Positions 686 through 44,767 of a stretch of DNA of 64,000 bases are shown piece after piece. The stretch covers positions 1 to 64,000 of the IMG/VR virus record IMGVR_UViG_3300042452_000984; one strand, given 5' to 3'. This DNA is from a virus. A model generated the notes under the pieces. It was not told the DNA's origin, did no database searches, and saw only the letters and a list, made by a program, of their open reading frames with translations. The stretch's first letter is position 1; each line of letters starts with the position of its first letter. The position numbers and the translations under genes are program-made.

Positions 686-1121
686 TAGCGCCCTGGTTCT
701 ATCGGGCGATCGCTTGTACATTGGCGATACTTTTACCCTTAGCTTTAGCCTATCAGTGGAAAGCATGGAGGCTAGCTTTCGACCTAACTTGAGCCAGGTC
801 AACCTCCGCATGATCGGCAAGCGTAACCCAGGCGACCCGGACGAGAAGGCGTTATTTGATAGCGCTCGGGCGACTAATCCCTACTGCACGATCGCCACTG
901 ATCCACCGGTAGGCACCACCTTGAGCGGACGCATCACCATCAACGGCGCGGCGACCGCCAGCCTAAAAACCTTCAAGCCCCAACCAGAGCTAGCCAGCCC
1001 AACGACCCAGCAAGCGGTGTTGCACTTCGCCTTTACCGCCCTCTACCAAGGCGAAAGCCGCCGCAAGGTGTTAGAGACTGGTGAAATTGTATTGCGCCGC
1101 GATCGCATCGAAGATCCATGA
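666..1121 (+). CDS. Hypothetical, possibly a beta-rich virion accessory protein
   Basis: 151-aa ORF coupled to the next gene by ATGA. Confidence 0.6.
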   Translation: MLLIPTDSALVLSGDRLYIGDTFTLSFSLSVESMEASFRPNLSQVNLRMIGKRNPGDPDEKALFDSARATNPYCTIATDPPVGTTLSGRITINGAATASLKTFKPQPELASPTTQQAVLHFAFTALYQGESRRKVLETGEIVLRRDRIEDP

Positions 1122-1843
1122 TTTACTACCGTTTCTATGGATGTTTGTACGAGCACCGGGGTGATCGCCTGTGCAAGGTAGCGGTCGGCACGATGCAGAC
1201 CCGTAATGGTGTCCAGTACCAGCTAAACCAAAACCATCGCTGGCAACGGATCAAAGATTTTGCTGTCCATGAGGGTGATGAGGTAGGGCGCAATGTGGCG
1301 GCATGGAAAGCGGGTAAGGTAATTGGCGGAGCGGTCGCTAACCACGCGATCGCCATGGGTGCTGACCCGATGGCCGCCCAATTGATTTCAGAAACCGTGG
1401 TGCAGGCAGGTACGGCAACAGCGCTATGGGTCGCCCAGCAAGCCCGTAAAGGCACCCTTACCGCCGAAGGGTTAGCGGCTTACTTTGTCCAACAATCAGC
1501 GGCGGCAGCCCTTGGCAAGATGGCCCACCACGAGGCAGAACATTGGTTGCATACCTACAATGCCCAAGCGATCGCCCAGCAGGTAGGACCGATCCTAGCG
1601 GGCAAGGGGGCAGGGTTAGGGACGGTTGCCACGACCGCTAAGACCAAAGCCCATACCGCCTTGGTAGACTGGGTGGTTAGCCGCGGCAAGCATGACCTAG
1701 CGATGCTGGGCAAGGTGTTTGGCCATGACCTAGCCAAGGCGGCTGACCCGCAGGCGATCGCATTGTTGTGGCAATTGCACCAGGCTGGTATTGCCATGGC
1801 CGCTATGCAGTTGAGGTATGCCCATGATGAACATCAGCCCTGA
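1118..1843 (+). CDS. Putative head-cargo protein with a NGVQYQLNQNHRW mini-module and an Ala-rich helical region
   Basis: Mini-module shared with the ORFs at 12889 and 24711; LCKV and LAKA motifs. Confidence 0.6.
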   Translation: MIYYRFYGCLYEHRGDRLCKVAVGTMQTRNGVQYQLNQNHRWQRIKDFAVHEGDEVGRNVAAWKAGKVIGGAVANHAIAMGADPMAAQLISETVVQAGTATALWVAQQARKGTLTAEGLAAYFVQQSAAAALGKMAHHEAEHWLHTYNAQAIAQQVGPILAGKGAGLGTVATTAKTKAHTALVDWVVSRGKHDLAMLGKVFGHDLAKAADPQAIALLWQLHQAGIAMAAMQLRYAHDEHQP

Positions 1844-1973
1844 ACGCGCCGAACTATTGAAGCTAAAGGCCATGAGCGACGAGGAGCGGCTTAGTTACTT
1901 GCTAGCCCGCCACGCGCTTATCCCCCTTGGCAGCCCATTGCCGCCCATCCATCAAGTGCTATGCGAACCCTAA
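1824..1973 (+). CDS. Small hypothetical protein (49 aa, MMNISPERAELL...)
   Basis: Translated by hand; bridges the flanking ORFs with short overlaps. Confidence 0.4.
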   Translation: MMNISPERAELLKLKAMSDEERLSYLLARHALIPLGSPLPPIHQVLCEP

Positions 1974-6958: not shown

Positions 6959-7011
6959 CAAAGCATATACGCTACAGACAAAGCTAAAGCATATATGCTA
7001 TAAATAAATTA

Positions 7012-7230
7012 TTGCGCACGGAGCGATCTATGAGAACTGTAGAAATCAAGGACTTGGACTCCGGGAAAATAGTGTGGAGAGGACATTACTGGTTCTTTTA
7101 TCAAGCTAAGGAGCGCGCGAAACTACACTTACCCCCTGGGTCCTACGCTATTCAAGGCACCAATAGCTCTGCCTGTAATCCGCGAATCACCCACCGTCAA
7201 TGGCTAAGTGCGGAAACCTTCGAAATATAA
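7012..7230 (+). CDS. Small hypothetical protein; start more likely ATG 7030
   Basis: GGAG lies before ATG 7030; AT-rich promoter region upstream. Confidence 0.5.
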   Translation: MRTERSMRTVEIKDLDSGKIVWRGHYWFFYQAKERAKLHLPPGSYAIQGTNSSACNPRITHRQWLSAETFEI

Positions 7231-7420: not shown

Positions 7421-7437
7421 TTTAGCGTTAGGCGTTG

Positions 7438-7473
7438 GCAGACCCCCAGCGATCGCTGGGGGTTTTGCTTTGG
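7438..7473 (+). terminator. Intrinsic terminator, repeat copy 1, with HIP1 at its centre
   Basis: acccccagcgatcgctgggggt followed by tttgcttt. Confidence 0.8.
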
Positions 7474-7492
7474 GGGGCTATTGCAAATAGCC

Positions 7493-7550
7493 TATCGGAA
7501 AGTGTTGACGATTCGATAGGCAGAAGGTATATTGAAATTGTTGAACCACT
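7493..7550 (+). promoter_or_regulatory. Sigma70-type promoter with a TATCG-N16-CGATA inverted repeat, copy 1
   Basis: TTGACG-17 nt-TATATT; near-identical copy at 24543-24601 on the minus strand. Confidence 0.8.
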
Positions 7551-7566
7551 CAGAGAGGACCGACCA

Positions 7567-7845
7567 ATGGTTGCTACACTTTCTTTTGACGATTTCCTAG
7601 CTACTGTCCAGGCTGAAGAGAATTTCCCTGAAGAGCGGGTTACAGCCCGCAATTTTCTTGCTCAGTACCCGCATTGGCAAGCATCTACTACTAAACCTTG
7701 GTACGAGCTAGAGTACCGGGGGTGGGCTGTGACCTACAGCAGCGTTGGGTGGGAGTACTCATTCAATGGGATCACCTGCCAAGGTGATTCCTTGGTGGAT
7801 GCTAAGTTGCGCCACCACGCTAAATATCAAGCGCACTTGGCTTAG
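7567..7845 (+). CDS. Moron-like hypothetical protein (MVATLSFDDF...)
   Basis: Start reassigned to the ATG downstream of the promoter and GAGG RBS. Confidence 0.7.
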   Translation: MVATLSFDDFLATVQAEENFPEERVTARNFLAQYPHWQASTTKPWYELEYRGWAVTYSSVGWEYSFNGITCQGDSLVDAKLRHHAKYQAHLA

Positions 7846-7953: not shown

Positions 7954-8643
7954 ATGGCTACTGGAATTGAATGGACTAACGAAACCTGGAACCCTACCAC
8001 GGGATGCAACAAAGTTTCTCCCGGCTGCGCTCATTGCTACGCCGAGGAAATGACCCGACGATTCCCCCATGCCTGGCCAGAGGGGTTTGCTTTCACTCTC
8101 AAGCCAGAACGGTTACAGCAGCCTCTGAAGTGGCGAAAGCCTAAGCGGGTGTTTGTCAACTCCATGTCTGACCTGTTTCATAAAGAGATGCCTTTGGACT
8201 ATCTGAAACAGATTTTTGCCGTCATGGAGTCCACCCCCAGGCATAGCTACCAAGTCTTGACTAAGCGGGCTGAGCGGCTAGCTGAGCTGGCCCCTGGGCT
8301 TCCTTGGCCAGACAACGTATGGATGGGTGTATCGGTTGAAAGTCAGGACTACACTAGCCGGATAGACTTTCTGCGAATGGTTCCGGCTGCGGTGCGGTTT
8401 TTGTCTTGTGAGCCATTGCTAGGGCCGCTGGAGCTTGACTTAAGTGGCATCCACTGGGTGATCGTTGGTGGCGAGTCTGGCCTAAAGCATAGGCCCATTG
8501 ATCCGGCCTGGGTCCGATCCATCCGTGACCAGTGCCAAGCTCAGGGAGTCGCGTTTTTCTTTAAGCAGTGGGGTGGCAGGACTAGCAAGGCTAACGGGCG
8601 CTTGCTTGACGGACAAGTATGGGAACAATACCCAGCAGCCTAA
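7954..8643 (+). CDS. Phage Gp37/Gp68 (DUF5131) family radical-SAM-like protein
   Basis: IEWTNETWNP, CNKVSPGCAHCYA, FVNSMSDLFH, FLSCEPLLG, WVIVGGESG and FFFKQWGG. Confidence 0.92.
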   Translation: MATGIEWTNETWNPTTGCNKVSPGCAHCYAEEMTRRFPHAWPEGFAFTLKPERLQQPLKWRKPKRVFVNSMSDLFHKEMPLDYLKQIFAVMESTPRHSYQVLTKRAERLAELAPGLPWPDNVWMGVSVESQDYTSRIDFLRMVPAAVRFLSCEPLLGPLELDLSGIHWVIVGGESGLKHRPIDPAWVRSIRDQCQAQGVAFFFKQWGGRTSKANGRLLDGQVWEQYPAA

Positions 8644-8648: not shown

Positions 8649-8697
8649 CCACCGTCTTCCCGCAGACCCCCAGCGATCGCTGGGGGTTTTGCTTTGG
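8649..8697 (+). terminator. Intrinsic terminator, repeat copy 3
   Basis: cccgcagacccccagcgatcgctgggggttttgcttt. Confidence 0.8.
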
Positions 8698-9921: not shown

Positions 9922-12879
9922 ATGGCTATTACTACCCTGCGCCCGCTGCGCCCCCGGCGGGCTATTTTATTGCGCAAAGACGCCCAGCTAGGTTTATTTG
10001 GCGGTGAGACTGAGGTTAAACCGACAGCGGCGGCCAAGCGTCGGGAGCGAATGCTGCAGCCCAAGGCACCGCCTAAGCCACCCAAGCCCAGCACCAGGGC
10101 GACAGCACCCAAAGAGGGTGACACCCGTATCAACCGGGCAGGCAATGAGGAGGTATTGCGGGCAGGGCGGTGGCGATTGGCTAGTAACCCTAAGGTGGTT
10201 GCCAAGGATAGGGGAAGCGCTGCGATCGTCCCGGTGGTGGAGGCGGAAAAGCCTATGCCTGAAATGGACGAGGACGCGATCGGCCCGGCTGTGGAAGAAC
10301 CCATGGTGGAGGCGAAACAAAACGTCAGCGCTGAAGAGGCAATGATGCAGCGCTATGCTGCACCTGATGTCACCTACACCTCAGATGGTCCGACGCAAGG
10401 CTTTCCTGGAGGCTACGACGAATCCTTTGCGCGAAAAACCGTTAGAAGCCTCAAGACGCGACTAGATCTTCTGCGTTCGAGCGAAGCGATCGCAAGGCGG
10501 AATGCCAAATATTCTCCGAAAGCTTATGCTGAAAGCTATGAAAAGCATCAAAGAACCAAGCAAGCATTTTTGTCAAGCTTGACGCCTTTAGATGACAGGC
10601 TAATAGACCTATTGCCGCCAGAAAATACTAAAAGGCAAGTTGAAATAGACAAAAAAATAGTAGAAGAGTGGATGGACTTGAACCCTGTCCGTGTTTCTGC
10701 TGACTACGTTCGAGTGCTAGCTGCAATGACTCCCGAGGAAGTCATAAAAAGGAACATGAGATCTGTTCCAAATCAAACCTTGTCTGACGAGTTTGCCAAG
10801 TATGCCGTAAGAAGCGGGCTGTATTGGACAGACTCCCGAACGGGAGGCAGCTTTCAGCTAGGGCCAGATTTAACTCGAGAACTTAAGCTAGCCGACAGAG
10901 CTAAGCGAATTTTTGGAATCAGTGTGGCGGAAACTCCAGACGACAGGGGGCAGATAAACAAACCTGCCGCCAAACCCAAAAGCCGACGCAAACCAGTAGA
11001 ACCGGAACCCACCGCCGTCCCCGCCGAGGTGATTGACGATGCACCCAAACCTACCAAGCTAGGCGATCGCATCCGAGCGATCGCCAATGACCTGCGTGAC
11101 GAAAATGATGAGCAGAAAAAGATCGCGGCCCGCATCCTAGGCGCAGCGGCCCAGATGGCACAGAACTACGACAACTTAGTGGGTGAAGTTGTGGATATGG
11201 TGGGCGAGGACTTGGGTGAGGACATCAGAAGCCTTAACCCAGACGCCACCCAGGCGGACGTAGAGATGGTAGCCAGAGACGGCGGCAACGAGCCACCCCC
11301 CACCCGACTGGCTGACAAAATGAAGGCGATCGCTAATGACCTGCGCAACGAAACCAACGAGCAGGTTAAGGCAACCGCCCGCATCCTTGACGCTGCCGCC
11401 CAAATCGCTCAGAACTACGACAACCTAGTCGATGAAGTGGCGGAGATGGTTGGCGAAGACCTTGAGGCGGGAGGGGGTGCGATCTCGCCTGCTGTGGAGG
11501 AACCCATGGTGGAGGCGGAGGAATCCCAGAAAGAAAAATTTGAGCGCATATACAGCCTTAGCACAGGCAAAAGGCTTAGAGCCTTAAATGAACTACCAAA
11601 CGATGAATGGCAAGCCTATTCAGAATGGGAAAAAAACAAAGGAAATGAGACCGCTTCTCCGCCAGAACCTCAAGAAAAAAGTGAGCCTGTAGCGGAAGAA
11701 GAAAAAGACGATCTTTTGTCCGATCCCTTCGCCGCCGACATTTCGCTATCTATGGCGCGACAGGCTCATGCAGGCACCTCTTTTGATCCAGACAAGCGCG
11801 GAGAAGATGAGGTCCGCGATTATGTGCAGCATTTACGCGCTGTCCAGAATAGCTTAAACAATATTGCCGAGACTCCAGAACAGCAAGCACTGGCGGCGGC
11901 GGAGTTTGATCGCTATCGGCAAGGCTACCAACGTCGCTACACCGACAGCCTAGCCCGCCGTGGTCGGATCGTATCTCCGATGATAGTTGGCCCAGCACGG
12001 TTCCCCGTTGACCAGATGGAAAAACGGCGTAGCTCCTACGAGCGATCTATCAATGAACTACTGGAATGGAGCGATCGCGCCCAAAACGCAGCCAAGAAGG
12101 CAGTCCTTGCCGCCGCCCCTGGCGGTGACCCGACCGCGCCAATATCCAGCGATGACCCTGACGCTATAAAAAAATTGCAGGCTCAGATTGATGCTGCTGA
12201 AAAGCGACAGGCGGCAATGAAGGCTGGCAATAAGATCGTGGTCGATAAGACTCTGACCGATGGTCAGAAACTTGCCAAGTTGATCGAGCTAGGCATTGAA
12301 AAATCTGATGCAGAATATGCACTTAGACGAGATGGTACTGACTCTCGCCCATACGGGTTCCAACGCTTTCAATTCTCTAATAACAGCGCCAACATTCGCC
12401 GGATGAAGCAGCGGATCGTCACATTAGAAAAAAAGCGTAGTCAATCAACTCGTTCCATCACTGTTGGCGACATCAAAATCACTGACGATGTAGAGGCAAA
12501 TCGTTTGCGGTTAGTATTCCCTGGTAAACCGTCAAGCGAGGTACGCGACAAGCTAAAGCGATCCGGCTTTAGGTGGTCTCCGAAAGAAGGCGCATGGCAA
12601 CGGATGAGAAGCAATGACGCTATTTATGCCGCAGAGCAAGCACTAGGGATCAAGCTCACCAAATCCTTGCCCCCTGGCCCCGTCTTCACCCTAATGGGCG
12701 CGCCCTATATCTTCGACCCTAACCGCGCCGTCCTACGCAAGGCTGGCACCAGTTGGGAGCAATTTGTGGCTGACCTCAGCAAGGAAGCTGATGACGACCC
12801 ATGCTGGAAGGGCTACGAGGCTGTAGGTATGAAAAAGAAACGCGGCAAGATGGTTCCGAATTGCGTCCCCATTAACTAA
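9922..12879 (+). CDS. Polyvalent head-cargo protein with a duplicated helical module, a DUF3560-like region and a C-terminal CWKGY...VPNCV module
   Basis: SPMIVGPARFP, ISSDDPDAIKKL, SNNSANIRR and GFRWSPKEGAWQR resemble polyvalent/anti-restriction proteins of mobile elements. Also carries LRKD, LTKS and LRKA motifs. ATG 9922 is preferred as start. Confidence 0.7.
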   Translation: MAITTLRPLRPRRAILLRKDAQLGLFGGETEVKPTAAAKRRERMLQPKAPPKPPKPSTRATAPKEGDTRINRAGNEEVLRAGRWRLASNPKVVAKDRGSAAIVPVVEAEKPMPEMDEDAIGPAVEEPMVEAKQNVSAEEAMMQRYAAPDVTYTSDGPTQGFPGGYDESFARKTVRSLKTRLDLLRSSEAIARRNAKYSPKAYAESYEKHQRTKQAFLSSLTPLDDRLIDLLPPENTKRQVEIDKKIVEEWMDLNPVRVSADYVRVLAAMTPEEVIKRNMRSVPNQTLSDEFAKYAVRSGLYWTDSRTGGSFQLGPDLTRELKLADRAKRIFGISVAETPDDRGQINKPAAKPKSRRKPVEPEPTAVPAEVIDDAPKPTKLGDRIRAIANDLRDENDEQKKIAARILGAAAQMAQNYDNLVGEVVDMVGEDLGEDIRSLNPDATQADVEMVARDGGNEPPPTRLADKMKAIANDLRNETNEQVKATARILDAAAQIAQNYDNLVDEVAEMVGEDLEAGGGAISPAVEEPMVEAEESQKEKFERIYSLSTGKRLRALNELPNDEWQAYSEWEKNKGNETASPPEPQEKSEPVAEEEKDDLLSDPFAADISLSMARQAHAGTSFDPDKRGEDEVRDYVQHLRAVQNSLNNIAETPEQQALAAAEFDRYRQGYQRRYTDSLARRGRIVSPMIVGPARFPVDQMEKRRSSYERSINELLEWSDRAQNAAKKAVLAAAPGGDPTAPISSDDPDAIKKLQAQIDAAEKRQAAMKAGNKIVVDKTLTDGQKLAKLIELGIEKSDAEYALRRDGTDSRPYGFQRFQFSNNSANIRRMKQRIVTLEKKRSQSTRSITVGDIKITDDVEANRLRLVFPGKPSSEVRDKLKRSGFRWSPKEGAWQRMRSNDAIYAAEQALGIKLTKSLPPGPVFTLMGAPYIFDPNRAVLRKAGTSWEQFVADLSKEADDDPCWKGYEAVGMKKKRGKMVPNCVPIN

Positions 12880-12888: not shown

Positions 12889-14541
12889 ATGAAAACTTTT
12901 ACCCTTGCAGGCGATCGCTACACCGCGATCGCGTCCCCCCGTGGCATCGTCTTTCGCAAAGCGGCGGACTTTGACACCCGGCTACCGATGGATGCTGAAC
13001 AGCGGGGCAGCATTGGCGCCGACCTGAATGCCTTGCTGTGTTCGCTAATAGACCTACGCCTATCGCTGCAACTAGCCCACTGGAATGTGAAGGGCATTAA
13101 TTTCCAGCAATTGCATGAACTTTTCGATAAGTTGCAAAAAAGCCTATTGCCCCACATTGACCTGGTGGCTGAGAATGTAGCCACCCTGGGGATGGTGGTG
13201 GTAGGCACTGCGGACGATATCGGCGATCGCACCATCCTGATGCCCTACAGCAATGGCAGCGACCAGTACGCCATCCTAGACGAACTAGCGGACCGCTACG
13301 CTTACCTAATCCGCCACATGATGGACTTGGTTGAGGAGCTACTGGCTGATGGCATCCAGGGGATTGCTGACGTACTGATAGGCATCCACATGGACATGGA
13401 ACGCAACGGCCTTTATTTTCTAGAATCCCATATCCCTAGCGCTAACCTACAGAAGGCAGCCAGGCGATCCATGCTGGAGGAGGGCGCTACCAAGGAACAC
13501 AACGGCGTCACCTACCGGCTCAATAAAAACCGTCGCTGGGAACGGAGCGATCGAGGCAGTAAGCCAGCCAGGAGCAGAAAGCCAAAGCCTCCCGGTGGTG
13601 TAGTGCCCGTCATCGCTATGGATGGCGCTAAAGCAAAAGGTAAGCCGAAAGCAATGCGCTTTGACAGCCGTCCCCCGGGCGGCGCCCAGGCGATGCAGCA
13701 GGGCAAGTTAAACGCTAAGGCACAGCGGGCGGCGGCCAAGGTAACGCCCAAAGCATCCCCCGCGAGTAAGCCTGCTAAGGCGAAAGCGGCCCCGGCGGAT
13801 AAGGTAAAGCCGAAGACGAAAAGAGCTGAGGTAAAGCCGAAGGCAGAGAAAGCCCAGCCAAAGGCAAAAGCGATCGCGTCCTATGGTGAGTTCAAAAACG
13901 AAGTTGCTAGGATCTACGACAAGCTCAACACTGAAGAAAACCTAGGCAACATGGTGCCTATCTATCGCATTCGCCGCGAGCTAGGCGATCGCGTCTCCCG
14001 TGCGCAATTCAGAGAATGGTTGCTTGACGTGCAAGCGGAGGACAAGATCCAAATGATGGGCGGTGTTACGGAGGGCTCAACCGACGATCAACGAGCCGAT
14101 GGCATTATGATGCCGGGCGGCAGAATTAGGTTTTACGTCAAAAAGCTAAAGGACTTTGACGGCAACGACGAGGCAGATTCATCTAACGCTCGCCAGCAGC
14201 CTAAGCCATCAACGCCGTTGCAACCTAAGGCGAAAACAACGCCCATCAAGTCCTACGACGACTTTAAGAGCGAAGTAGCCAGCACCTATGACAGGCTGAA
14301 CAAGGACTACAACCTAGGCGGTTTAGTTCCTATCCACCGCATCCGCCGCGAGCTAGGCAACCGTGTCTCACGCAAGCAGTTTGATAACTGGTTGATCGAT
14401 GTCCAGGTCGACGATCATGTGCAGCTGATGGGCGGCGCCTTGCCCAACGCTACCCAGGCAGACAAAGATGATGCCCTGCAGATAATGGGAAATCTCCGCT
14501 TCTACGTCAAAAAGTTGAGAGACTTTGGCGGTAAGCCTTAA
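12889..14541 (+). CDS. Dps/ferritin-like domain fused to a cargo leader, a basic linker and two repeated putative DNA-binding domains
   Basis: Dps signature AHWNVKGINFQQLHELFD...IDLVAE; two ~90-aa repeats containing VPI[YH]RIRRELG.RVSR.QF..WL. Confidence 0.8.
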   Translation: MKTFTLAGDRYTAIASPRGIVFRKAADFDTRLPMDAEQRGSIGADLNALLCSLIDLRLSLQLAHWNVKGINFQQLHELFDKLQKSLLPHIDLVAENVATLGMVVVGTADDIGDRTILMPYSNGSDQYAILDELADRYAYLIRHMMDLVEELLADGIQGIADVLIGIHMDMERNGLYFLESHIPSANLQKAARRSMLEEGATKEHNGVTYRLNKNRRWERSDRGSKPARSRKPKPPGGVVPVIAMDGAKAKGKPKAMRFDSRPPGGAQAMQQGKLNAKAQRAAAKVTPKASPASKPAKAKAAPADKVKPKTKRAEVKPKAEKAQPKAKAIASYGEFKNEVARIYDKLNTEENLGNMVPIYRIRRELGDRVSRAQFREWLLDVQAEDKIQMMGGVTEGSTDDQRADGIMMPGGRIRFYVKKLKDFDGNDEADSSNARQQPKPSTPLQPKAKTTPIKSYDDFKSEVASTYDRLNKDYNLGGLVPIHRIRRELGNRVSRKQFDNWLIDVQVDDHVQLMGGALPNATQADKDDALQIMGNLRFYVKKLRDFGGKP

Positions 14542-14605: not shown

Positions 14606-15046
14606 ATGGGCACTCAACAGGACCTCTACAAAATGCTGGCGGAAGGCGGCACCCGCCTTAGGGATACCCGACGCATCCACCAGCAGGCGATCGCAGGCAT
14701 CGCCGCTCAGCAACAGCAAACCCTATCCGAGCTATCGCGGCTGCGCGATCGCATCGAGTCAGCCGGTATCGGCAACGACCCGGAGGCGGAGGCGCAATAC
14801 CTGAAATTGCTGGCCACCAAGCGCAAGCTGGAGCAAGTACACCAGATGAACCCGGTGCTCGCCTCCATGCCACCTGTGGCCCTCCAGAAGGCGTTGGACT
14901 ATGGCTTATTTCTATTGCAGGTCTACAGCGGCGGACGGCTTTCTAAGGCATCTGGCGGCGACATAGAGGCCCATATCCTGCGGCTAAAGCGCTACCGTCA
15001 CCCGGCAGCAGTAGCCCAAATCAACGCACTGGAGCAATTACTGTGA
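14606..15046 (+). CDS. Hypothetical helical protein with LQKA and LSKA motifs
   Basis: ORF coupled to the next gene. Confidence 0.6.
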   Translation: MGTQQDLYKMLAEGGTRLRDTRRIHQQAIAGIAAQQQQTLSELSRLRDRIESAGIGNDPEAEAQYLKLLATKRKLEQVHQMNPVLASMPPVALQKALDYGLFLLQVYSGGRLSKASGGDIEAHILRLKRYRHPAAVAQINALEQLL

Positions 15047-21617: not shown

Positions 21618-22156
21618 GGAGACTGTTATTGCTCGACCACACCGCCCTGGTGCAGCACCGGAATGGCCCCGGTGTCTACATCAACAACCGGGACAATATG
21701 ACATTGGTTCCAGGCATTCTAGGCGCCCTGGAGCCCTACGTTGACAGGAACTACAACGTCGCCATCTGTAGCAACCAGGGCGGCGTCGAGAAAGGCCACC
21801 TAGCGTTCGGTGCTTGCCAAAACCTATTCGGTGAAATGTTCAAGCTGTCCAACTATTGGGTTCAGGCCATTTGGTTTTGCCCCCTAGCCCGGGGCAGCAC
21901 CGGCAGTTATGCCATTCAAATGACGATGCCCTACGAACCCAAGACCTATACCAAATGCCAAAAGTATGCCACCACCGGCTACCGGATGCCCCAGGCGGGC
22001 ATGATTTTGGCCGCCATGGACTGGTTTGGGGTAACGCCTGAGCAGACCACCATGGTGGGCTTACAGCCGGAGGCTTACTATGCCGCCGCTGATGCAGGCG
22101 TCAAAAAGTTTGTCCACAGTTCGTACTTTGTTGAAAAAGCGGGAGTATTGCAATGA
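21614..22156 (+). CDS. HAD-IIIA (GmhB/PNKP-like) fold protein with degenerate catalytic motifs
   Basis: SNQGGV, R.P.AGMIL and MVG...AA..AGV are retained; DxD, Lys and GD..D appear substituted. Confidence 0.7.
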   Translation: MRRLLLLDHTALVQHRNGPGVYINNRDNMTLVPGILGALEPYVDRNYNVAICSNQGGVEKGHLAFGACQNLFGEMFKLSNYWVQAIWFCPLARGSTGSYAIQMTMPYEPKTYTKCQKYATTGYRMPQAGMILAAMDWFGVTPEQTTMVGLQPEAYYAAADAGVKKFVHSSYFVEKAGVLQ

Positions 22157-23271
22157 AATTTACAGTAGATGCGGGTGATCTGGCAGAGGCGATCGCGCTG
22201 TGCGATCGCGCTATCCCTAAGCGCCCTAGCCGCCCTATCCTGGGCCACATGCTAATGCAGCTAGACAATGGCAGCCTTACCCTAAAAGGGTTTGACGAGG
22301 CGCTAGGGATTAGCTTCTCGTTGCCAGTGGATATGGAGCAATCCGGTGATTGTTGCATATCCCCAACCTACCTAAAGCCCATCCTGGAGCGCCTATCCGG
22401 GCAGGTGGCCTTAGACCTGCAATACCCTGTCCTGGTGCTAACCACCCTGGGCGCCGAGTACCGGATTAACACCCTCCTGGCTGAGGACTACCCCAACTTG
22501 CCCGAGGTGGACGGTACCCCGGTGGAGTTGTCTATCTCGTCAGAGGAACTACGAGCCGCGATCGCGGCTACGGTGTTCTGCGCCAGTACTGACGAAAGCA
22601 AGCAGGTACTTACCGGCGTTCACTTCTCCGTTACCCCCGGCGAAGGGGGGGAGGCAGGGGTGATGGAGTTAGCGGCCACCGATGGCCATCGGATGATCGC
22701 CTACCCGCTACCCGGTAGCGTTGTCATCCCCGATGACTATCGCCCCGTCACCCTGCCCGGGAAGAGCCTGCGGGAACTGCTAACCGTCCTGAAGGGCGAG
22801 GGTGCCGTCAAGCTGACGTTTGATGACGTGTCTGTGCGTGCCCTATGCGGGGACACCGAGCTCTATAGCCGGGTTATCGAGGGGCAATACCCCAACTACC
22901 GGCAGCTATTCCCCAAGGTGTTCTCTAAGGTGGCGACCTGCGATCGCAAGCCATTCTTAGCCGCCCTCGATCGCACCTTGGTGGTGGCCGGTGAAAACAA
23001 GGACATCGTTAAGCTGGAGTTTGACACCACTGGGCTGGTGATGAGTGCAGAGGCAAAAGAAGCGGCCAAAGCTCAGGAACATGTCGAGGGCGTAACCTGT
23101 AGCGAACCCATCACCCTAGCGGGGAACGGTAAGTACATCAAGGAGGCGCTAACCAATGCGATCGTGGGTGAAACCTTCACTATGGAAATGAATAAGCCAG
23201 AAAGCCCAGTGGTTTTTACAGATGGGTCCCCGGCGACCTATTTAATGATGCCCATTCAGATTAGGGGTTAA
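22153..23271 (+). CDS. dnaN: DNA polymerase III beta sliding clamp
   Basis: 372 aa; RPSRPIL, STDESKQVLTGV, AATDGHR, IEGQYPNYRQLFP and YLMMPIQI. Confidence 0.93.
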   Translation: MKFTVDAGDLAEAIALCDRAIPKRPSRPILGHMLMQLDNGSLTLKGFDEALGISFSLPVDMEQSGDCCISPTYLKPILERLSGQVALDLQYPVLVLTTLGAEYRINTLLAEDYPNLPEVDGTPVELSISSEELRAAIAATVFCASTDESKQVLTGVHFSVTPGEGGEAGVMELAATDGHRMIAYPLPGSVVIPDDYRPVTLPGKSLRELLTVLKGEGAVKLTFDDVSVRALCGDTELYSRVIEGQYPNYRQLFPKVFSKVATCDRKPFLAALDRTLVVAGENKDIVKLEFDTTGLVMSAEAKEAAKAQEHVEGVTCSEPITLAGNGKYIKEALTNAIVGETFTMEMNKPESPVVFTDGSPATYLMMPIQIRG

Positions 23272-24710: not shown

Positions 24711-27700
24711 ATGGTTCTTCCTCTGGAGGCTATCCTGTCCAAGTCAGCCGATATGGTTGTGGGCGGGGTAGCCTCCAATTTTTTTAGAGATCTTGACGGC
24801 GATGCCATTTGCCCGGACGCGATTCAACGCGCTATTCCTGGCTTCATGGCAACCCGTGGCCCGGACGGGCTAAAGGGTGGCCCCATTCGCCTGCACCATG
24901 GTTTTTGGGAGCGATTTCTAAAGCAGTCCATCTCTGCCCTTAATATTCCCTACGACCAGCAAGTGGGGCTACTTGCCGCGATCGCGCTCCCCCTGGGCCG
25001 GGTGACTGAGATGAGCGTTGATAGCGATGGCACTACGCGTTGGCGGGGTGTTCTATCTGGCGCTAACCCCATCGCCCGGGTGGTGTGGAATATGCTCAAA
25101 GAGGGCATGGTTCACCTTGGCGTTAGCGTTGGCGGCAAGATCAACGGTGTACGCCCCGGTAGAGATGCGATCGGGCGGACCTGTAACCTAATTACCGACG
25201 TGCGGCTCGATGAGCTCAGCATCACTGACAACCCAGCCAATCGATTAATTGAGTCCGAGACCCCCGACAATGGCGCGTACATTACCGCGCTTGCTAAATC
25301 TGTGGGTAATACCATGCTCGCTCAGAAACAACAGCCTTACATCTACCTGAATGGCATCGCCTATACCGCTCACCCTAGCGAGGAACATGGCATTGTCCTA
25401 CGCAAGGCAGGACGGCGGCGGGCACCCTCCCCGGGCCAGCTAGGCTTGTTTGGTGGGCACAATGAGGGCGATACCAAGGTAGAGGACGGTGTTACCTATC
25501 GGCTAAATAGCAATAGCCGGTGGGAGCGGATGGATAAACCCAAGGCCAGCGGTAAGCCGTCTGGCGGGAAGAAGAAGGCGGAAAAGCCTGCGATCGTCCC
25601 GGTGGTGGAGGCGGAGAAACGAGCAGAGACACCAGCAAAGGCAAAAGCGGCTAAGCCGAAGGCAAGACGACAAAAGGAGCCAAAACCATATCTAGAAGAT
25701 CAAAGCCCTTCATTATTGGCGGCAGAGCTAGACAAAATTAAGAATTTTCTGGCATTGGCTGATGCTGGACTTGTAAGCATAACTCCCAGAAAGCGCAAGC
25801 AAACCGAGGCTTACCTGAAGCAGGTCAAAGACGCACTTTTTGAAATAACCAAGCCTGACGACGACGCGCCAAGCATGTCTGACAACGATCTCCTGCAGGA
25901 GCTAGGCGTAGCAGGCATGTCTGACGACGACCTTATGCGAGAGCTAGGCGTTGAACCCGCCGCCCAGAACCCCGAACCCACCGTTGGCGAAATGCTGGAA
26001 CAGCAGCAAGCGGAGATAGCTGAGTCGAAACCAGTTATCTCAGGCAGGCAATTTGTCGAAGAGTTTATTTCCGCCTGGAATGACACCCATGGTTCAGAGT
26101 GGAACCGCGATGCTGCGGGGTACACAAAGGCCAAAATATGGGACAAAAAAGACGGGGAGATCCGGGTTTACTTTGGCTCCGTTAAGCAGCCATTGGTTTT
26201 CAGAAAGCAAGATAATGGCGAATACGTCGCCGCTGTAACCCCTGGTAAGTATGGACTTGACGAACAAATCGCCCCTATCCTTGACGATCTAAATTCACGG
26301 TTTTCTACCAAGCCTGAAAGCACTAAGGCTGACCAAGGCTCTGCCGGAACCCAGCAACGAGTATTGATGCAAGAAGACGAAGACGGCGTTGTTGCACCTG
26401 CAGGACAACACGAACGTGGCGTCCATATCGTGCGGGAATGGTACGAGTCAGAACCATCTCCCAAGCCCACCGTTGGCGAAATGCTGGAACAGCAGCAAGC
26501 CGCGATCGCGGATGAGCCTATGCCTGAGAGTGAGGCGATGGAGGGGGCGGAGGATGGTGCGGCACCCACATGGGAAGACGTGCCTCAACTTTTTGAAAGC
26601 GGTGACTACGAAAAAATCCCTCAAGCCCTAGGAGTAGATCCTAGATATGGGCTGTCCCCGAGTCAGGCGTCTAGGTTTCTAAACATCCTTGGAATAAAAG
26701 AAGCTAAAGCCAAAAAGATTCTTGGGCAGGGCTACCTAGAGCAAGAGCGAAAAGAATACCCAAGCATTCAACCCGATCCCGATCCTAAACGCTACTACGA
26801 TCTTGATAAGCTCGTTGACGCCATTAACGAGGCAAAGGCGTTTAAGGGAGTCAAGGCGCTGCAAAAACCTAAGGCAGAGCGCCCTAAGCGCGAACTAAAA
26901 GAAGAAGAGCTTACGCTAACGGATAATGACTGGAAGAGGCTAGCCAAGCTAAAAGGCGCCATGCCTTTCTCACCAAATTTTCTAGGTGATGGAGTTGGTG
27001 CGGAAACCTACTATTGGGTGCCAAATCATGCAATAAAAGACGCCGAATACCTAAAAAGAAAGTTAGGTTTTTATATAAAGCGCGATTTTAGCTGGAACAG
27101 AATAGAAGGCGCCAACTTTGTTATGCGGGAAGACGTCATTGATAATGTACTTGGCTACATTATTAAACCTAAATCCGAGCCCGCCGCCCAGGACCCCGAA
27201 CCCACTCTCACCAAATCTCTCACCCCCTCACTCCCCATGACTATCGATAACTTCCTCCGCAAAGCCCTGGGTAATCCTGGGCGTGAGTTTGGTTCTGGCT
27301 CATGGCGGGATACGGGCATCCCGGCGATGGGCCGTAAAGTTGACGCCAAAAGCCCGCAGCCCAAGGGCGGCAAAAAGGTACAAATGGATGAGTCCGGTAG
27401 TGCCCATGCCGGTAAGGGTATCGGTGGCAAACAACCCAAGGCCCATCGCCCCTACTCTTCCGGCGGCATGCCCCCCACCGATGTATTTGGTATCACCATC
27501 ACCCAACTAACCCGCAACTTGGCCAAAGCCTGCTACATGGACAAAGATGCCTGGGGTAGCCCGGAGACCGTTTCTTTCTTGACCGACAGCGCCAGGGCGA
27601 TCGCGGGCATGACTGACACCCCGACCGACCCGATGGTGAACTTTGTCCGGTTTTTGCAATACTGCACCCGTTTCGCCCAAGAATTGCCGTTTATGAACGA

Positions 27701-27890: not shown

Positions 27891-28715
27891 ATGGACCCAC
27901 AAACCCTACAAGCCTTGATGGGAGTATTCCAACAAGGCTTACAAATTCTGCAATCTGCCCAGGCGGGTGCCGGCGCGCCCCCTACCGCTGGTGCCCCCGC
28001 CGCCAATGGTGCCCCCGCCGCCAATGGTGCGCCACCCATGGCCGCCGGTGCCCCTCCCGCCATGGACCCCGACGACGAGGACATGGAAGAGGATGACGAG
28101 GACATGGATGCCCCCGATGCCATGGATGCTGATGATGACGAAGACGACATGGACGACAGCGGCATGGGTGGTTCCTCCCTGCACGATCGCGTCAGTCAGC
28201 TAGAAAACCACACCGGCCTTAAGAAAAGCGCCCGGGGTGGCTCCTTACTTGATGCCGTCGCTGCCCTCGAAGAAACTATCCTTGGCACCGAATACGAAGG
28301 TCCCCTAGTAGATCGCGTCAACCAATTAGAGAAAGCGGCAGGTATCAGCCAACGCGCCCAGGACCAAGCACCGGACGAAATCCCGCTAGAAAACTTGATC
28401 AAAAGCGCGATCGAATCCGGCATCCAACAAGCCATGGCAACCCGTGACCCGGAGGCCAACGAAGACCCGGACGCTATCCCCGACCTACGCCAGATGCGCA
28501 AAGCAGCCAAGGGCCAGCGTTATGGCAGTCGTAAGGGCGTCGCTGGCGCGATCGTCAGTGATGAGGACCTGGTAAAGAGTGCTGCCAGCCTTGGCTGGGA
28601 CGGCGATGACCTGGACCGCCCCGTGTCCTTCGGTGATGCGCTGTTGCTGCAATACCATTCACAACAAGCGGGTGAGCCACTGCCATTTTCAGCCGATGAG
28701 GCTGACGACGATTAA
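27891..28715 (+). CDS. Capsid scaffold-like acidic protein
   Basis: Between protease and capsid; acidic and coiled; LKKS, LEKA, LIKS, MRKA and LVKS motifs. Confidence 0.7.
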   Translation: MDPQTLQALMGVFQQGLQILQSAQAGAGAPPTAGAPAANGAPAANGAPPMAAGAPPAMDPDDEDMEEDDEDMDAPDAMDADDDEDDMDDSGMGGSSLHDRVSQLENHTGLKKSARGGSLLDAVAALEETILGTEYEGPLVDRVNQLEKAAGISQRAQDQAPDEIPLENLIKSAIESGIQQAMATRDPEANEDPDAIPDLRQMRKAAKGQRYGSRKGVAGAIVSDEDLVKSAASLGWDGDDLDRPVSFGDALLLQYHSQQAGEPLPFSADEADDD

Positions 28716-28743: not shown

Positions 28744-29733
28744 ATGACAAACGCTGCGCTTACCCGTCGGGCGCTACTGAAATCGCTAGGCATTAGCGAT
28801 GGCGGTGGTGCCGAGGTTACCCTCCAAACCACGATCGCCTCCGAGGTGATCCCCCTGATCCGGCAACAATGCTTCATGCGGCAGATCGCTGACCGCAGCA
28901 AGAGCCTGATCAATATGACCAAGCCCAAGATCCGCATCCCCAAGCTGGTACGCGCCCAAGGTGCCTACAGCGTCAAAGCGGGCCAACCGGCGCCGGAATT
29001 TAAGGCACGACTCGACAGCATCGACCTAGTGCCCGAGAAGCTGATGACCTGGCTACCCGTGGACCAGGAAGTATTCGAGGACAGCACTATTCGAGATATT
29101 GAAGGGATGCTCAAAGAGGAAATGGCACGGGAATTTGCCCAGGCGGAAGAACTTGCCTTCCTGCTAGGGGATACCACCGTCGACCATGGCCCCGGCGACC
29201 CTAAGAATGTTTTTAATGGGTTATTCGCCCAAGCTGGAGCAACGCCCTACACCTACGACGCCTCCCTTGACACCAGCGCTAACGCTGTTGAGGCCGGTAC
29301 TGTCACCAGCAACCTGGTACGCGCCATGCGCTACCTAGGCATCTACGGACGCAATAAGCGCGACGTAGTGGTGATGGTGGGCCTAGCCTGGGAGGAAGCC
29401 CTCCTGCGTAACCGTAGCTTCCAAACCATGAGCAGCTACGCCTATGGCTCTGGCGCTGGTATCTTCACCGGTGAGATCGGACGCCTAGCCGGTGCCCCGG
29501 TCATTGCTACCACCTTCCTGGATGCGCAACCCGGTGAAACCTACGGAAAAGCCCTGGTAATGAACCAATCAGCCTTTGCTATTGGGGACTGGCAGCGATT
29601 TAACATCAGGGTATACAACGAGATCCTGAGCCAGACAGACCAAACTGCAATCAGGGCAAGGGAACGTTTAGCCTTTACCGTTCGCTACCCTGAAGCTATT
29701 GTTGAAATTCTCAACGTTCCGTCTCAACCGTAG
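28744..29733 (+). CDS. Major capsid protein (HK97 fold)
   Basis: 329 aa; EMAREFAQAEELAFLLGD, FNGLF, GRLAGAPVI and RARERLAFTVRYPEAIV. Confidence 0.9.
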   Translation: MTNAALTRRALLKSLGISDGGGAEVTLQTTIASEVIPLIRQQCFMRQIADRSKSLINMTKPKIRIPKLVRAQGAYSVKAGQPAPEFKARLDSIDLVPEKLMTWLPVDQEVFEDSTIRDIEGMLKEEMAREFAQAEELAFLLGDTTVDHGPGDPKNVFNGLFAQAGATPYTYDASLDTSANAVEAGTVTSNLVRAMRYLGIYGRNKRDVVVMVGLAWEEALLRNRSFQTMSSYAYGSGAGIFTGEIGRLAGAPVIATTFLDAQPGETYGKALVMNQSAFAIGDWQRFNIRVYNEILSQTDQTAIRARERLAFTVRYPEAIVEILNVPSQP

Positions 29734-32405: not shown

Positions 32406-32407
32406 TC

Positions 32408-38320: not shown

Positions 38321-38365
38321 GCCCCCGTTGTTACCTCCCTCGTAACGACGGGGGCTTTTCTTATT
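38321..38365 (+). terminator. Hairpin / intrinsic terminator before the tape measure gene
   Basis: gcccccgttgttac...gtaacgacgggggc followed by ttttctt. Confidence 0.65.
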
Positions 38366-38372
38366 TACGGCC

Positions 38373-42326: not shown

Positions 42327-42425
42327 AGCAAATTTGCAACCCTATCGCCAATCTGCGCGAACCGATAGTATCCTAGAACTAGGGTGGGCATCGTCTAATC
42401 AATAGCCCTACAGCTTTCCAGAAAA

Positions 42426-43217
42426 ATGCACCAGCTAGCCCTGTTCAATACCATTGACAATAAGCCAATGGCCGACGATCGCATCCGGTTCTACCGTGGC
42501 GACGCGATCGCGGTCCTGAAGCAACGGCTAGCGGCAGGCGATCGCTGGGACTATTGCCTTACCTCCCCTCCCTATTACGGCCAGATAGACTATGGCCACG
42601 AAGGGCAACACGGGCTAGAGGATAGCCTAGACGCCTACCTGGATACGTTGCAGCAGGTTTTTAGGCTGGTATACCAGGGGTTAGCCGAGGGCGGGGTGTG
42701 CTGGATTGTGATAGGCGATACCAGCAACAACTACAGCCCGATACGCGCCAAGGGACAACGGCGACAAGCAGGAGAATGGCTCTACCGCCGTAGCCTGGAG
42801 GACGACTACCGCGAGAAAGAACCCTTACTGGTGCCTATCCGCCTGGCGGAGCGACTACGGGCTGATGGCTGGGTAATGCGGAAGATATTGATCTGGGATA
42901 AGGGTCAAAGTAGCCAGGTGGGCAAGGGTGACGCGCCACCGGAAACCCATGAATATGTCCTGATGCTGGGCAAAAGCGGCAAAAACGGGCGGCCGATGCT
43001 GAACGCCAAGCCACTGCGATCGTCGGTGTTGGTACATCGCCCCTGTGGCCATCCTAGCCACCCCTGCCCATTCCCTGACTCGTTAGTCCACGAACTATTG
43101 TCTAGCGCCACAGTGGCCGGGGCGACGGTGCTAGATCCTTACTTTGGCACCGGCACCACCGGACGGGTAGCGTCCCTGCTTGGCATAAAGTCTATCGGCA
43201 TTGACCTAGGAGCATAA
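42426..43217 (+). CDS. DNA N4-cytosine/N6-adenine methyltransferase (beta class)
   Basis: TSPPYY, HPCPFP and VLDPYFGTGTT. Confidence 0.92.
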   Translation: MHQLALFNTIDNKPMADDRIRFYRGDAIAVLKQRLAAGDRWDYCLTSPPYYGQIDYGHEGQHGLEDSLDAYLDTLQQVFRLVYQGLAEGGVCWIVIGDTSNNYSPIRAKGQRRQAGEWLYRRSLEDDYREKEPLLVPIRLAERLRADGWVMRKILIWDKGQSSQVGKGDAPPETHEYVLMLGKSGKNGRPMLNAKPLRSSVLVHRPCGHPSHPCPFPDSLVHELLSSATVAGATVLDPYFGTGTTGRVASLLGIKSIGIDLGA

Positions 43218-43961
43218 ATGCTAGTCCTTGAAATTACTGAGAACACGGTCCTAAAGCCAGGGCCGGAGCAAGCGATCGCCTACGATAAGGCAGCGACAGT
43301 GAATATCGGCAAAAGGCGATCGTTCCCGCTGTTGGCTTATCAGTTATTGCACGGCCATGTGCATTTCACCATCGACCCAAAACGGTTTGACTTGGTGAGC
43401 CTGCACCCGAGCGGCAGAAATACTTGGTGGGTATATGCGGGACACGCCAGCGATCCATCAGGGTTTGGTTCAGGCAATGATCCCAAGGATGAACCCCCGA
43501 CTCGCCGGGACGGCCATCGAATTATCCTACCAGGGTTTGAGAACGACTGCTCCAGTACTCAGCCGATCTCGTCAAAAGCGCCTAACTTCACCTGGGGTGA
43601 AGCGCTCCATGTTGCCGCCGATGGTAGCTACCGGCACCCTGAAAATGCCTCCGTGGTGTACGGCATCATTCGGGTGGCGGAGGTGATGCAGGACATTCGG
43701 GAGCGGTTTAAGCGGCCCATCAAGATCAACTCTTGGTATCGGGACCCGGCTACTAATGCCCGCGTGGGGGGCGCTCGTTTTTCTACCCACATGAAAGGCC
43801 ATGCGGTGGACTTTAATATCCCTGGGCTGTCCCTGGCGGACATTTATAACGAGTTGGATCATTGGTGGGGTGGCCAAGGTGGGCTTGCCCGGGGTAATGG
43901 GTTTATTCATATCGACTGCCGTGGCAGCCGTGCCCGGTGGGACTACCCTGGGGTTAGGTAG
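43218..43961 (+). CDS. Peptidase M15 family endolysin
   Basis: INSWYR...NARVGGARFSTHMKGHAVDF...FIHIDCRG. Confidence 0.88.
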   Translation: MLVLEITENTVLKPGPEQAIAYDKAATVNIGKRRSFPLLAYQLLHGHVHFTIDPKRFDLVSLHPSGRNTWWVYAGHASDPSGFGSGNDPKDEPPTRRDGHRIILPGFENDCSSTQPISSKAPNFTWGEALHVAADGSYRHPENASVVYGIIRVAEVMQDIRERFKRPIKINSWYRDPATNARVGGARFSTHMKGHAVDFNIPGLSLADIYNELDHWWGGQGGLARGNGFIHIDCRGSRARWDYPGVR

Positions 43962-43963
43962 CT

Positions 43964-44767
43964 ATGAAAATTTATACCCTTGCCGGGGTGCCCTATATCC
44001 CAGTGGTGACCGCTGGGGGCATTGTCCTAAGGAAAGCGGGACGACGGCACCAAGTGTCGCCAGGGCAGTTAGAGTTATTTGACACCCAACACCAGCAGGG
44101 CGAAACCCGCACCAACCAAGCGGGCCACCAGGAGGTGCTGCAAGAGGGGCGGTGGCACCTCGCTAACAGGACTGGACAGCCACAGCAGCAGCCAACAAAG
44201 AATCCTGCCACAATGCGATGGCACGTTACAGCGGCAGGAGATTTAATCCGGGAGAAAGGCTTTCAAGTTGGGCTTGGCGGTGGAGCGGGCGGTCCTCTGT
44301 CCGGCAAAGGCATTTCAGTTTGGAAAGACAAACAAAAGGCAGATCAATTTCACAAGCAAATGCAAGAACTTGAAGACATAAGGTCTTCGGGTGATCCATT
44401 AAAAGCGGCAGAAGCTGCCACCAACCAGCCAATTAGCTTAACTGACGGTATGGCAGGGCTGTGGGCTGGAAAGTTAGGACGCGCACTAGACTCCCGAGAA
44501 CGTGCAATCATTCATGCTCAGTCGCTACTCAGCCCATACATACCGCCTGACTCGTTCTTTGGAGATGGGCCAAGGAGAAAATTTGAAAATCTCGCCGTCC
44601 ATGTTTCCTCTGAGTCGCAAGAAAATAGCGATGGATGGGTTAATGATGACGAAGAATTGCATAGTCCTGAAAAGGTAAAGCTGGCACAACCGCAGCAGCC
44701 AACGCTCACCATAGAAGGACTCCATGCTCTACGCCAACAAGTTGCCCAGGAGTTAGCTAGTGGATAA
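43964..44767 (+). CDS. Head-cargo protein with a possible ADP-ribosyltransferase-like domain
   Basis: Cargo leader MKIYTLAG...GIVLRKAGRR and QLELF; WHVT...IREKGF...GKGISV pattern. Confidence 0.55.
   Translation: MKIYTLAGVPYIPVVTAGGIVLRKAGRRHQVSPGQLELFDTQHQQGETRTNQAGHQEVLQEGRWHLANRTGQPQQQPTKNPATMRWHVTAAGDLIREKGFQVGLGGGAGGPLSGKGISVWKDKQKADQFHKQMQELEDIRSSGDPLKAAEAATNQPISLTDGMAGLWAGKLGRALDSRERAIIHAQSLLSPYIPPDSFFGDGPRRKFENLAVHVSSESQENSDGWVNDDEELHSPEKVKLAQPQQPTLTIEGLHALRQQVAQELASG

Follow-up and report, generated by a model that had tools for sequence, protein, structure and literature searches.

The first 64,000 nucleotides of an 82,631-bp contig from an uncultured phage (IMGVR_UViG_3300042452_000984; G+C 55%), called the window below, encode five proteins with a common hairpin-like module of ~25 amino acids (aa), module A, which ends in [L/F]xKA: the 1118, 9877 and 43964 proteins, each named by its position, a Dps-fusion protein and the prohead protease. 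Module A, with the consensus (Y/F)TLxGxxY...GIVLxKA(G/A)RR, is part of a composite leader in which it can be joined by module B (PGQLxLF), module C (GDTKxxNGxxYxLNxNxRWxR, or in shorter form GDTK..G..Y.LN.N.RW.R.), a basic linker that belongs to the leader and, often, module D ((A/I)VPV(V/I)E(D/E)), which follows C in many leaders. The end of A matches a motif, L-x-K-[A/S] (LxK[AS]), that is enriched in the head proteins of the same genome. At a probability of roughly 0.5, we propose that the leader is a clip-off propeptide by which cargo proteins would enter the capsid, to be ejected later; packaging and cleavage are predicted here from sequence patterns.

Copies of the leader in the genome

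The copies and their positions, all on the + strand, were as follows.

1118-1270, +: degenerate leader of a 241-aa protein, an A-like hairpin ending LCKV, then module C (TRNGVQYQLNQNHRW), without B
9922-10197, +: N-terminal leader of the 1000-aa DUF3560-like protein (9877 gene), a degenerate A ending LLRKD, B (QLGLFGG), a basic spacer and C (GDTRINRAGNEEVLRAGRW)
12655-12747, +: C-terminal copy of module A in the 9877 protein, between LTKS (residue 927) and LRKA (residue 953)
12889-12963, +: N-terminal module A of the Dps-fusion protein, ending FRKA (Ferritin-like, 4e-12)
13447-13557, +: LQKA-ARR site and module C, immediately 3′ of the Dps domain
25335-25550, +: full A-B-C leader opening a ~630-aa passenger in the protease (translation, self-blastp and profiles)
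43964-44179, +: full A-B-C leader of a 267-aa protein (translation, homologue and profile matches)

Four strong copies had been quoted by a sequence-only reading of the window (12889-12963, 43964-44047, 25335-25420 and 12682-12747), and their translations match those quotations exactly. When all six frames of the 82,631-bp genome were searched with a regular expression for the end of the module ([IVLA][IVLF][FLIV]RK[ADSG]), 5 places were found, all in long + strand open reading frames (ORFs): the four quoted copies and a degenerate fifth at the N-terminus of the 9877 protein (AILLRKDAQLGLFGG). By six-frame self-blastp, the Dps protein matched the protease over 69 aa (47.8%, E 2.9e-9), the 43964 protein matched the protease over 58 aa (41.4%, E 1.8e-6) and the 9877 protein matched the 43964 protein over 28 aa (53.6%, E 2e-4). 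Within one genome, leader copies are only 35-48% identical as protein. An origin as DNA repeats was rejected, the copies not being repeated at the DNA level, and yet specific residues are kept, which argues for selection on the peptide; among 40 leaders W is invariant and Y, K, A, G, T and R are each present in at least 90%. A look-up of the leader in the protein Atlas gave no usable feature match, and the Atlas model was poor, with a predicted local distance difference test score (pLDDT) of 0.44.

Two weaker copies had also been suggested. The one at 1118 is supported by relatives, since the same cargo domain stands behind a canonical A-C leader in P0040; in P0066 it follows a weak A match (ending LIKV) and C. 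The one at 1961, in the SNF2 protein with LTKA at 2126, was recovered by no profile, and this protein follows the leader order only loosely (LTKA, then QLALV). The leader type at 9922 also heads P0023, a DarB-like 2493-aa protein of a related phage.

The leader had been read as a single capsid-address module. What stands of this is that A always ends in an LxK-type site; the leader itself proved composite, with modules B and C not specific to the capsid. Its parts are separable: the Dps protein begins with A and carries C behind the Dps domain, and some relatives show A-C without B or the order A-C-B. Cargo identities held in part: the Dps and DUF3560-like proteins carry the leader, the SNF2 protein (1961) did not join them, and the label "ADP-ribosyltransferase (ART)-like" for the 43964 protein is unconfirmed because Pfam and PHROGs gave no family, nor was an ART family detected in it. 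The Dps protein consists of a Ferritin-like domain, module C and two repeated C-terminal domains (the latter assigned by eye), and the 9877 protein of a repeated region, a DUF3560-like region and a C-terminal Cys motif. This Cys-rich end (12790-12879; DPCWKGYEAVGMKKKRGKMVPNCVP) matches the ends of five function-unassigned PHROG families (best 8e-9) and recurs C-terminally in the leader-bearing relatives P0017, P0021 and P0025.

LxK[AS] in head proteins

LxK[AS] was counted in 92 non-overlapping ORFs of the whole genome and compared with per-protein shuffles that keep composition.

Protease: 7 observed, 0.87 expected
Scaffold: 4 observed, 0.14 expected
Capsid: 1 observed (residue 11), 0.20 expected
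Portal: 1 observed (12 residues before the end), 0.18 expected
Gene after the portal: 4 observed, 0.22 expected
Sheath: 0 observed, 0.26 expected
Tape measure: 0 observed, 0.32 expected
Head set, 5 proteins: 17 observed, 1.62 expected, reached in 0/2000 shuffles
Leader-bearing set, 5 proteins: 8 observed, 3.59 expected, reached in 58/2000 shuffles
Tail and neck set, 23 proteins: 4 observed, 2.66 expected, reached in 588/2000 shuffles
Other set, 59 proteins: 8 observed, 7.49 expected, reached in 956/2000 shuffles

The sites that had been noted by inspection were borne out in the protease (about seven; 7 counted) and at the capsid N-terminus (1), as was their absence from sheath and tape measure (0 and 0); the scaffold is enriched as claimed, with four sites and not about five. 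The expected difference between head and tail proteins was likewise found (17 vs 1.62 in the head, 4 vs 2.66 in tail and neck) and repeated in relatives. The post-portal gene joined the head set only after its count was known, and without it the head set has 13 vs 1.40. Among the 131 patterns of the form a.bc with at least 3 occurrences in head proteins, L.KS ranked first and L.KA fourth in head-versus-rest enrichment, with acidic scaffold runs ranked between them. A or S follows L.K in 17/23 cases in head proteins vs 20/91 elsewhere (p 5.7e-6). The sites in scaffold and capsid were located as follows.

27891-28715, +: scaffold protein, four LxK[AS] sites at residues 110, 146, 169 and 227
28744-28785, +: capsid N-terminal peptide, ending at the putative cut site LLK|S

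The motif was replicated in six diverged loci (capsid identity 63-87%, scaffold identity 30-60%), where the protease-scaffold-capsid trio (18 ORFs) has 52 sites vs 5.32 expected, a count reached in 0/1000 shuffles, and the 109 other ORFs have 12 vs 11.86 expected. L056 belongs to another phage lineage, with only the protease family in common; its 456-aa protease-scaffold protein has 8 LxKS vs 0.72, and the next ORF carries LxK[AS] at residues 17 and 24. Five sites hold their positions across 42 aligned protease homologues, with a variable middle residue (31/39, 41/42 for ALAKS, 36/41 for FLxKALG, 42/42 for a site that is mostly LxKC, and 40/42). Capsid N-termini have LxK[AS], as KS or KA, at residues 6-19 in 58 of 60 distinct full-length sequences, and the two that lack it begin at a later Met.

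Scaffolds and protease tails are generally predicted to be helical, so LxK[AS] might be a compositional or helical by-product of coiled-coil head proteins. This is highly improbable: shuffles that keep composition never reach the counts, positions are kept while the middle residue changes, and the capsid site sits in a non-helical N-terminal peptide. Nine control motifs, among them L.R[AS], L.E[AS], [IVA].K[AS], L.K followed by other residues and the reversed motif, were flat in head proteins, and a helical or compositional origin was rejected on that result. In HK97, according to the passages of PMC10275583 on maturation, the cut falls at K103/S104, with L105 next, and passages of PMC8569155 place cleavage in phage phi12 after R or K. 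On the head-only enrichment, the replication in relatives, the conserved positions with a variable middle residue and the match to K103/S104 of HK97, LxK[AS] behaves like a cut site of the prohead protease, at which cleavage would occur.

Two further proteins carry such sites. The 499-aa protein encoded directly after the portal (80996-82495, beyond the window; L009:16996-18495) begins ...ALQLRKSLGVDAGGGAEITVQQ, an N-terminus that copies that of the capsid protein (RRALLKSLGISDGGGAEVTLQT), putative cut site included; it also has LTKA, then the C-like AQGRAYVFNANNRW. It may represent a second type of capsid address, one that mimics the capsid N-arm. A 146-aa protein (14606-15046) has two LxKA vs 0.13 expected, as does its homologue in L044 (35.6% identical, two sites); a similar small ORF with two sites lies in L049, where tblastn gave no match to the 146-aa protein. 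The 146-aa protein is probably a further small head-internal substrate.

The protease and its passenger

The protease gene contains, besides the leader listed above, the following features.

24711-25301, +: HK97-type (S78-like) prohead protease domain, LSKS at residue 9, conserved ALAKS at residue 194
25588-25615, +: module D (IVPVVEAEK), 28 bp identical to 10220-10247 in the 9877 gene
27207-27266, +: passenger-closing sites, LTKS (residue 833) and conserved FLRKALG (residue 849)

Against the N-domain of the window protein, Pfam PF04586 (S78) gave E 0.022 and 15.3 bits, below the cut-off of 21; among the 42 homologues, 7 matched this family at E ≤0.01 (best 7.7e-4) and none matched any other family. 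The NCBI name of one homologue is HK97 family prohead protease. A PDB sequence search with the protease domain gave no informative match. His65 and Ser118 are invariant in the alignment of the 42 homologues, and we take them to resemble the HK97 catalytic pair.

Typical homologues, of 410-450 aa, consist of a protease domain ending in ALAKS, a spacer of ~15-25 aa, FLxKALG and a C-terminal domain. The extra ~630 aa of the window protein sit exactly between the ALAKS and FLxKALG sites, both of them conserved and predicted to be self-processed, so that cuts there would also set the passenger free. Other passengers occupy this position in P0018 and P0020. In L046, a 1340-aa protease has a passenger that begins LEKA-VRKPSPGQLGLF, with the site and B present and the hairpin absent, which suggests that the hairpin is dispensable where targeting is unneeded. 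This passenger fits a hairpin that acts as an address and a site that alone is enough for a fused passenger. The full A-B-C copy in the protease of the window may be a recently captured free-standing cargo gene.

Because a copy of A within the protease needs no address, A may serve processing and not targeting: it would be an exosite or timing element that presents LxKA, and entry would depend on C, the basic linker, D or fusion to a head protein. The post-portal gene, which copies the capsid N-arm instead of A, and the conservation of D after C point the same way. We consider this quite unlikely, given that the L046 passenger has the site without the hairpin and that C occurs in phages with other head systems.

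The passenger domains are set apart by exact DNA linkers, 26-35 bp long. Across the protease passenger and the 9877 protein, 25977-26011 equals 26466-26500, 25956-25981 resembles 27180-27205 and 10288-10314 resembles 11491-11517 (exact or near-exact); these linkers encode EPTVGEMLEQQQA, AAQ(N/D)PEPT and PAVEEPMVEA and split the domains of both proteins. The exact linkers in the passenger, together with the 28-bp identity of D with the 9877 gene, are consistent with cassette exchange or shuffling via micro-homology. The modules could then be mere recombination joints or spacers of shuffled polyvalent proteins, for which one could cite the exact 28- and 35-bp DNA linkers beside cassettes, the leaders that adjoin unrelated cargo at 53-80% identity and the close relatives that differ in passenger at the same protease site. 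That the modules are no more than this is very unlikely: copies within the genome are diverged without DNA repeats and keep specific residues, and shuffling has no bearing on the motif statistics, which come from non-shuffled head proteins.

The leader and its putative cargo in other genomes

A profile built from the window copies only matched 103 representative clusters at E ≤1e-3 among 1.84 billion proteins. With separate A and C profiles applied to 109 fetched proteins, 38 of which were in the alignment behind these profiles, 56 proteins carried A, in 58 matches. Of these matches, 52 lie in the first 70 residues, 4 are C-terminal and 2 are internal (protease homologues); 46/58 end in LxKA. 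Where A lies away from the start, another LxK[AS] is found just upstream (DLIKAA, LAKAA, LTKS or ALAKS), so that an internal A would be excised from both sides. A-bearing proteins have a median length of 349 aa and C-only proteins (n = 50) of 1526 aa.

The 11 homologues of the 43964 protein have only the first ~72 residues in common, at 53-80% identity, and their C-terminal parts are of at least four unrelated kinds (by eye). Cargo of leader-bearing relatives includes ADP-ribosyltransferase, PARP and DnaJ domains, each in 1/40 rows, and DarB-like methylase-SNF2 proteins; N6_Mtase+SNF2, ART, Ntox46 and LPD1 domains were found in relatives. In close relatives, each genome contains 7-10 matches to the leader or to C.

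In a scan of viral contigs, seven loci that include A were found on six contigs, all 6/6 with the capsid gene of this clade, which is weak evidence for a link of A to the capsid, the six contigs being closely related; an eighth A-bearing viral locus, a 37%-complete fragment, is an exception to the co-occurrence. Scanning genome contigs with the leader gave 14 loci. The two that were examined, a MutS C-terminal tail of Archangium (L032) and a polyvalent protein of a Steroidobacter metagenome-assembled genome (L043), were rejected as prophage leaders.

Modules B and C outside the capsid clade

Module B is identical, flank included, to the Archangium MutS tail (L032; RAPSPGQLGLFGG), and it fits the beta-clamp-binding consensus Q-phi-x-[L/M]-[F/L] (PMC11139829). 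Three leaders have QLGLF, QLGLF and QLELF, which fit this consensus and are predicted to bind the clamp. In the genome Q[LM].LF occurs 4 times vs 0.42 expected, a count that 2/1000 shuffles reach. Its fourth match and a probable clamp gene are located as follows.

42426-42449, +: start (MHQLALF) of a DNA methyltransferase-like protein
22153-23271, +: likely beta-clamp (DNA polymerase III) homologue, translation DnaN-like by eye

The methyltransferase-like gene (42426-43217) lies in the tail module, between the tape measure gene and a likely peptidoglycan peptidase-like gene (assigned by eye).

Module C was found in 25 ORFs (479-4966 aa) at 20/23 further viral loci, none with an A match or this capsid clade nearby, and only one of the further C-bearing loci has this protease family. 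A 98%-complete phage record with three C copies matched neither this protease family nor Pfam Phage_capsid. C was thus rejected as a capsid-specific element; judged by its distribution, which includes loci with none of this capsid clade nearby, it is a general mini-module, carried by giant polyvalent proteins of unrelated phages. In C-only proteins, [LF]xK[ASD] is present in the first 30 residues in 21/50 vs 4.3% of internal control windows, and [LF]xK[ASD] followed by Q-phi-x-[LM]-[FL] in 10/50 vs 0.37%. A DarB-like protein of a diverged relative begins ALYKA-AYQMDLFGGG, and DarB-like relatives have two or three such motifs in series. A different, similarly ordered leader opens giant polyvalent proteins of unrelated phages (L055, L064, L065 and L072), namely (L/I)xKAR(R/K)SP(R/K)L(V/I)P, a hairpin-like ...G....VWV.P stretch, then Q.(D/S)LF.

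These motifs would also suit a leader that is a replisome or DNA address, in which B tethers proteins to a beta clamp of phage or host, with A and C as auxiliary binding elements and LxKA unrelated to maturation. The identity of B with a genuine MutS clamp-binding tail and the published consensus, the apparent clamp gene, the methyltransferase start, the excess of Q[LM].LF, the polyvalent proteins elsewhere that start with [LF]xK[ASD] and then Q-x-x-LF, and the serial motifs of DarB-like relatives all favor it. It would leave unexplained the near-invariant K-A at the end of A, which matches a head-only motif, the bracketing of internal A by two sites and the position of a leader between the processing sites of the protease. 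Several leaders also lack B, with C coming straight after A, and the motif is present within 45 aa in only 32/56 A-bearing proteins. We therefore regard a replisome address as unlikely.

Genome and gene order

The 82.6-kb genome looks myovirus-like and encodes a portal protein (Pfam Phage_portal, 3e-25), a MuF-like minor head protein (PHROG "minor head protein"), an HK97-fold capsid protein (Phage_capsid, 4e-30), an acidic scaffold and a protease of 1054 aa, and neck, sheath, tape-measure and baseplate genes (assigned by eye). The order protease (24711), scaffold (27891), capsid (28744) is the same in six relatives, and the cargo genes are located between the portal and the MuF-like and protease genes. 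Neither Pfam nor PHROGs assigned a family to the leader, the scaffold, the full-length protease or the 1118 and 43964 proteins. A PDB sequence search with the capsid protein matched only "Major head/capsid protein" chains and the Rcc01687 capsid, with the cut site outside the alignment; we take the former to be T5-like and the latter to be that of RcGTA.

Among 50,697 records of GenBank phages no relative was found by protease-to-capsid DNA, leader or capsid protein. Protease homologues carry the source names Leptothoe, Leptolyngbya, Desertifilum and Coleofasciculaceae, so the hosts are most likely filamentous cyanobacteria; prophage-like relatives reside in Leptolyngbya-like filamentous cyanobacteria. 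A 36-bp exact direct repeat (7438-7473 and 8662-8697), each copy with a 22-bp palindrome, flanks the ORFs 7435-7845 and 7954-8643 and is probably a pair of operators or terminators.

Proposed mechanism

In the reading that we prefer, an HK97-type serine protease would mature the head, most likely cutting after the lysine of L-x-K|[A/S], with the protease itself, the scaffold, the ~12-aa N-terminal peptide of the capsid protein and probably the portal tail and the post-portal protein as substrates. At least five proteins per genome start with A or hold it bracketed internally. A would dock the protein inside the assembling prohead and then be clipped off, and the cargo would stay in the head and exit with the DNA. 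A cargo cassette borne by the protease would be freed by the same self-processing cuts. The cut would expose a new N-terminus, consisting of a basic stretch and PGQLxLF, the predicted clamp-binding motif, then the GDTK...RW mini-module, so that the address is perhaps two-stage, first to the capsid, then to the clamp or DNA in the infected cell. The evidence for the capsid-entry half of this scheme is consistent, though indirect, and the clamp-binding N-terminus is speculation from one motif.

A more extended version appears doubtful. It holds that hairpin A takes proteins into the prohead, the cut exposes the clamp-binding motif and the ejected effectors (Dps, DUF3560-like, ART/PARP and DarB-like methylase-helicase proteins) land on sliding clamps of incoming or host DNA; a short hydrophobic strand, [L/F]xK[A/S/D] and Q-phi-x-L-F would then make up a general leader of polyvalent proteins across many phage lineages, and the protease linker a natural cargo slot.

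Several observations weigh against the propeptide reading. The assignment of the protease rests on sub-threshold S78 matches, the source name of a homologue and gene order. Enrichment of LxK[AS] within the cargo proteins is modest (8 vs 3.59 expected), modules B and C are not capsid-specific, and the copy of A inside the protease, which has no need of an address, may point to processing instead. In five of the six diverged loci, the 10 kb on either side of the capsid gene yielded no gene with A. The database gene call for 43964-44767 (P0005, 184 aa) begins at Met84 and so excludes the leader. Gene callers thus missed the leader here, and similar ones may be under-called elsewhere. Finally, the first 100 residues of P1 DarB, its targeting sequence included, have neither LxK[AS] nor Q-x-x-LF.

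Detailed knowledge of how phages choose the proteins packed beside their DNA comes from very few systems, mainly T4 and P1. Polyvalent effectors are widespread, with their packaging so far only predicted. This clade offers a recognizable leader, a simple candidate cut motif and a natural cargo slot in the protease with which to ask what makes a protein virion cargo. An exposed clamp-binding motif, if true, would tie virion delivery to a defined target in the host cell, and the leader and protease slot are possible parts for loading chosen proteins into HK97-type capsids.

Comparison with known systems

T4 head proteins are cut at the acidic motif [L/I]-x-E, and gp21 belongs to a protease family separate from the HK97-like one. 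The parallel with T4 drawn by the sequence-only reading holds for function and fails for the cut motif and protease family; L.E[AS] is not enriched in the head proteins here (4 vs 2.37), the enriched motif being L-x-K-[A/S]. In T4, according to passages of PMC9024508 and PMC5512222, unrelated proteins enter the prohead by means of a short N-terminal peptide that the head protease removes, and the cargo, which includes an ADP-ribosyltransferase, is injected with the DNA. The proposed leader would be like this system (IPIII, other internal proteins and Alt, with gp21) in function, showed no sequence likeness to the T4 capsid targeting sequence and is longer and multi-part.

A capsid targeting sequence has been shown experimentally in P1 DarB, a giant methylase-helicase that counters restriction; according to passages of PMC9024508 it comprises the N-terminal 30 residues. 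P0023 is 28% identical to P1 DarB (E 3e-82), and darB adjoins portal and protease genes, much like the cargo genes here; the leader here differs in being common to at least five proteins. With proteases of the HK97 gp4 type (Peptidase_S78) the system has in common the order protease, scaffold, capsid and, as predicted here, self-processing and a cut after lysine, followed in HK97 by Ser-Leu. To these the protease here adds a C-terminal domain of ~220 aa and, in some genomes, a 400-900-aa passenger between processing sites.

Polyvalent proteins are multi-domain effectors predicted to be packaged and delivered with the DNA, as set out in main-text passages of Iyer et al. 2017 (PMC5512222), in which no N-terminal leader, LxK site or GDTK...RW mini-module is described. 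SNF2, methylase, ART, LPD1 and MuF contexts are common to them and to this system. They are recognized by single polypeptides that combine several effector or LPD domains and whose genes adjoin virion genes, and such polypeptides are present here. Phages of the phiKZ/SPN3US type have many head-internal or ejected proteins with N-terminal propeptides and repeated protease motifs (passages of PMC10052503); their protease motif and lineage differ from those here, and these passages describe no propeptide sequence common to the proteins. A beta-clamp-binding motif in a disordered flank is found at the N-terminus of Hda (PMC11139829). Module B, in its strongest form QLxLF, is like it and likewise lies in a disordered flank, with binding predicted. 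A literature search found no report of clamp-binding motifs on virion proteins. Encapsulin cargo-loading peptides are short terminal peptides that bind the inner face of an HK97-fold shell, with ferritin-like proteins among their cargo; they are comparable in idea only, through the Dps cargo and the HK97-fold shell.

Capsid targeting sequences, processed ejection proteins and polyvalent effectors are already known. Literature searches gave no recognizable leader common to many cargo proteins, no L-x-K|[A/S] site grammar for this protease group, no cargo cassettes between two self-processing sites of a protease, no clamp-binding-like motif directly after a cut and no GDTK...RW mini-module. By analogy, the best reading is that the leader would work like the targeting sequences of T4 and P1 DarB without being homologous to them.

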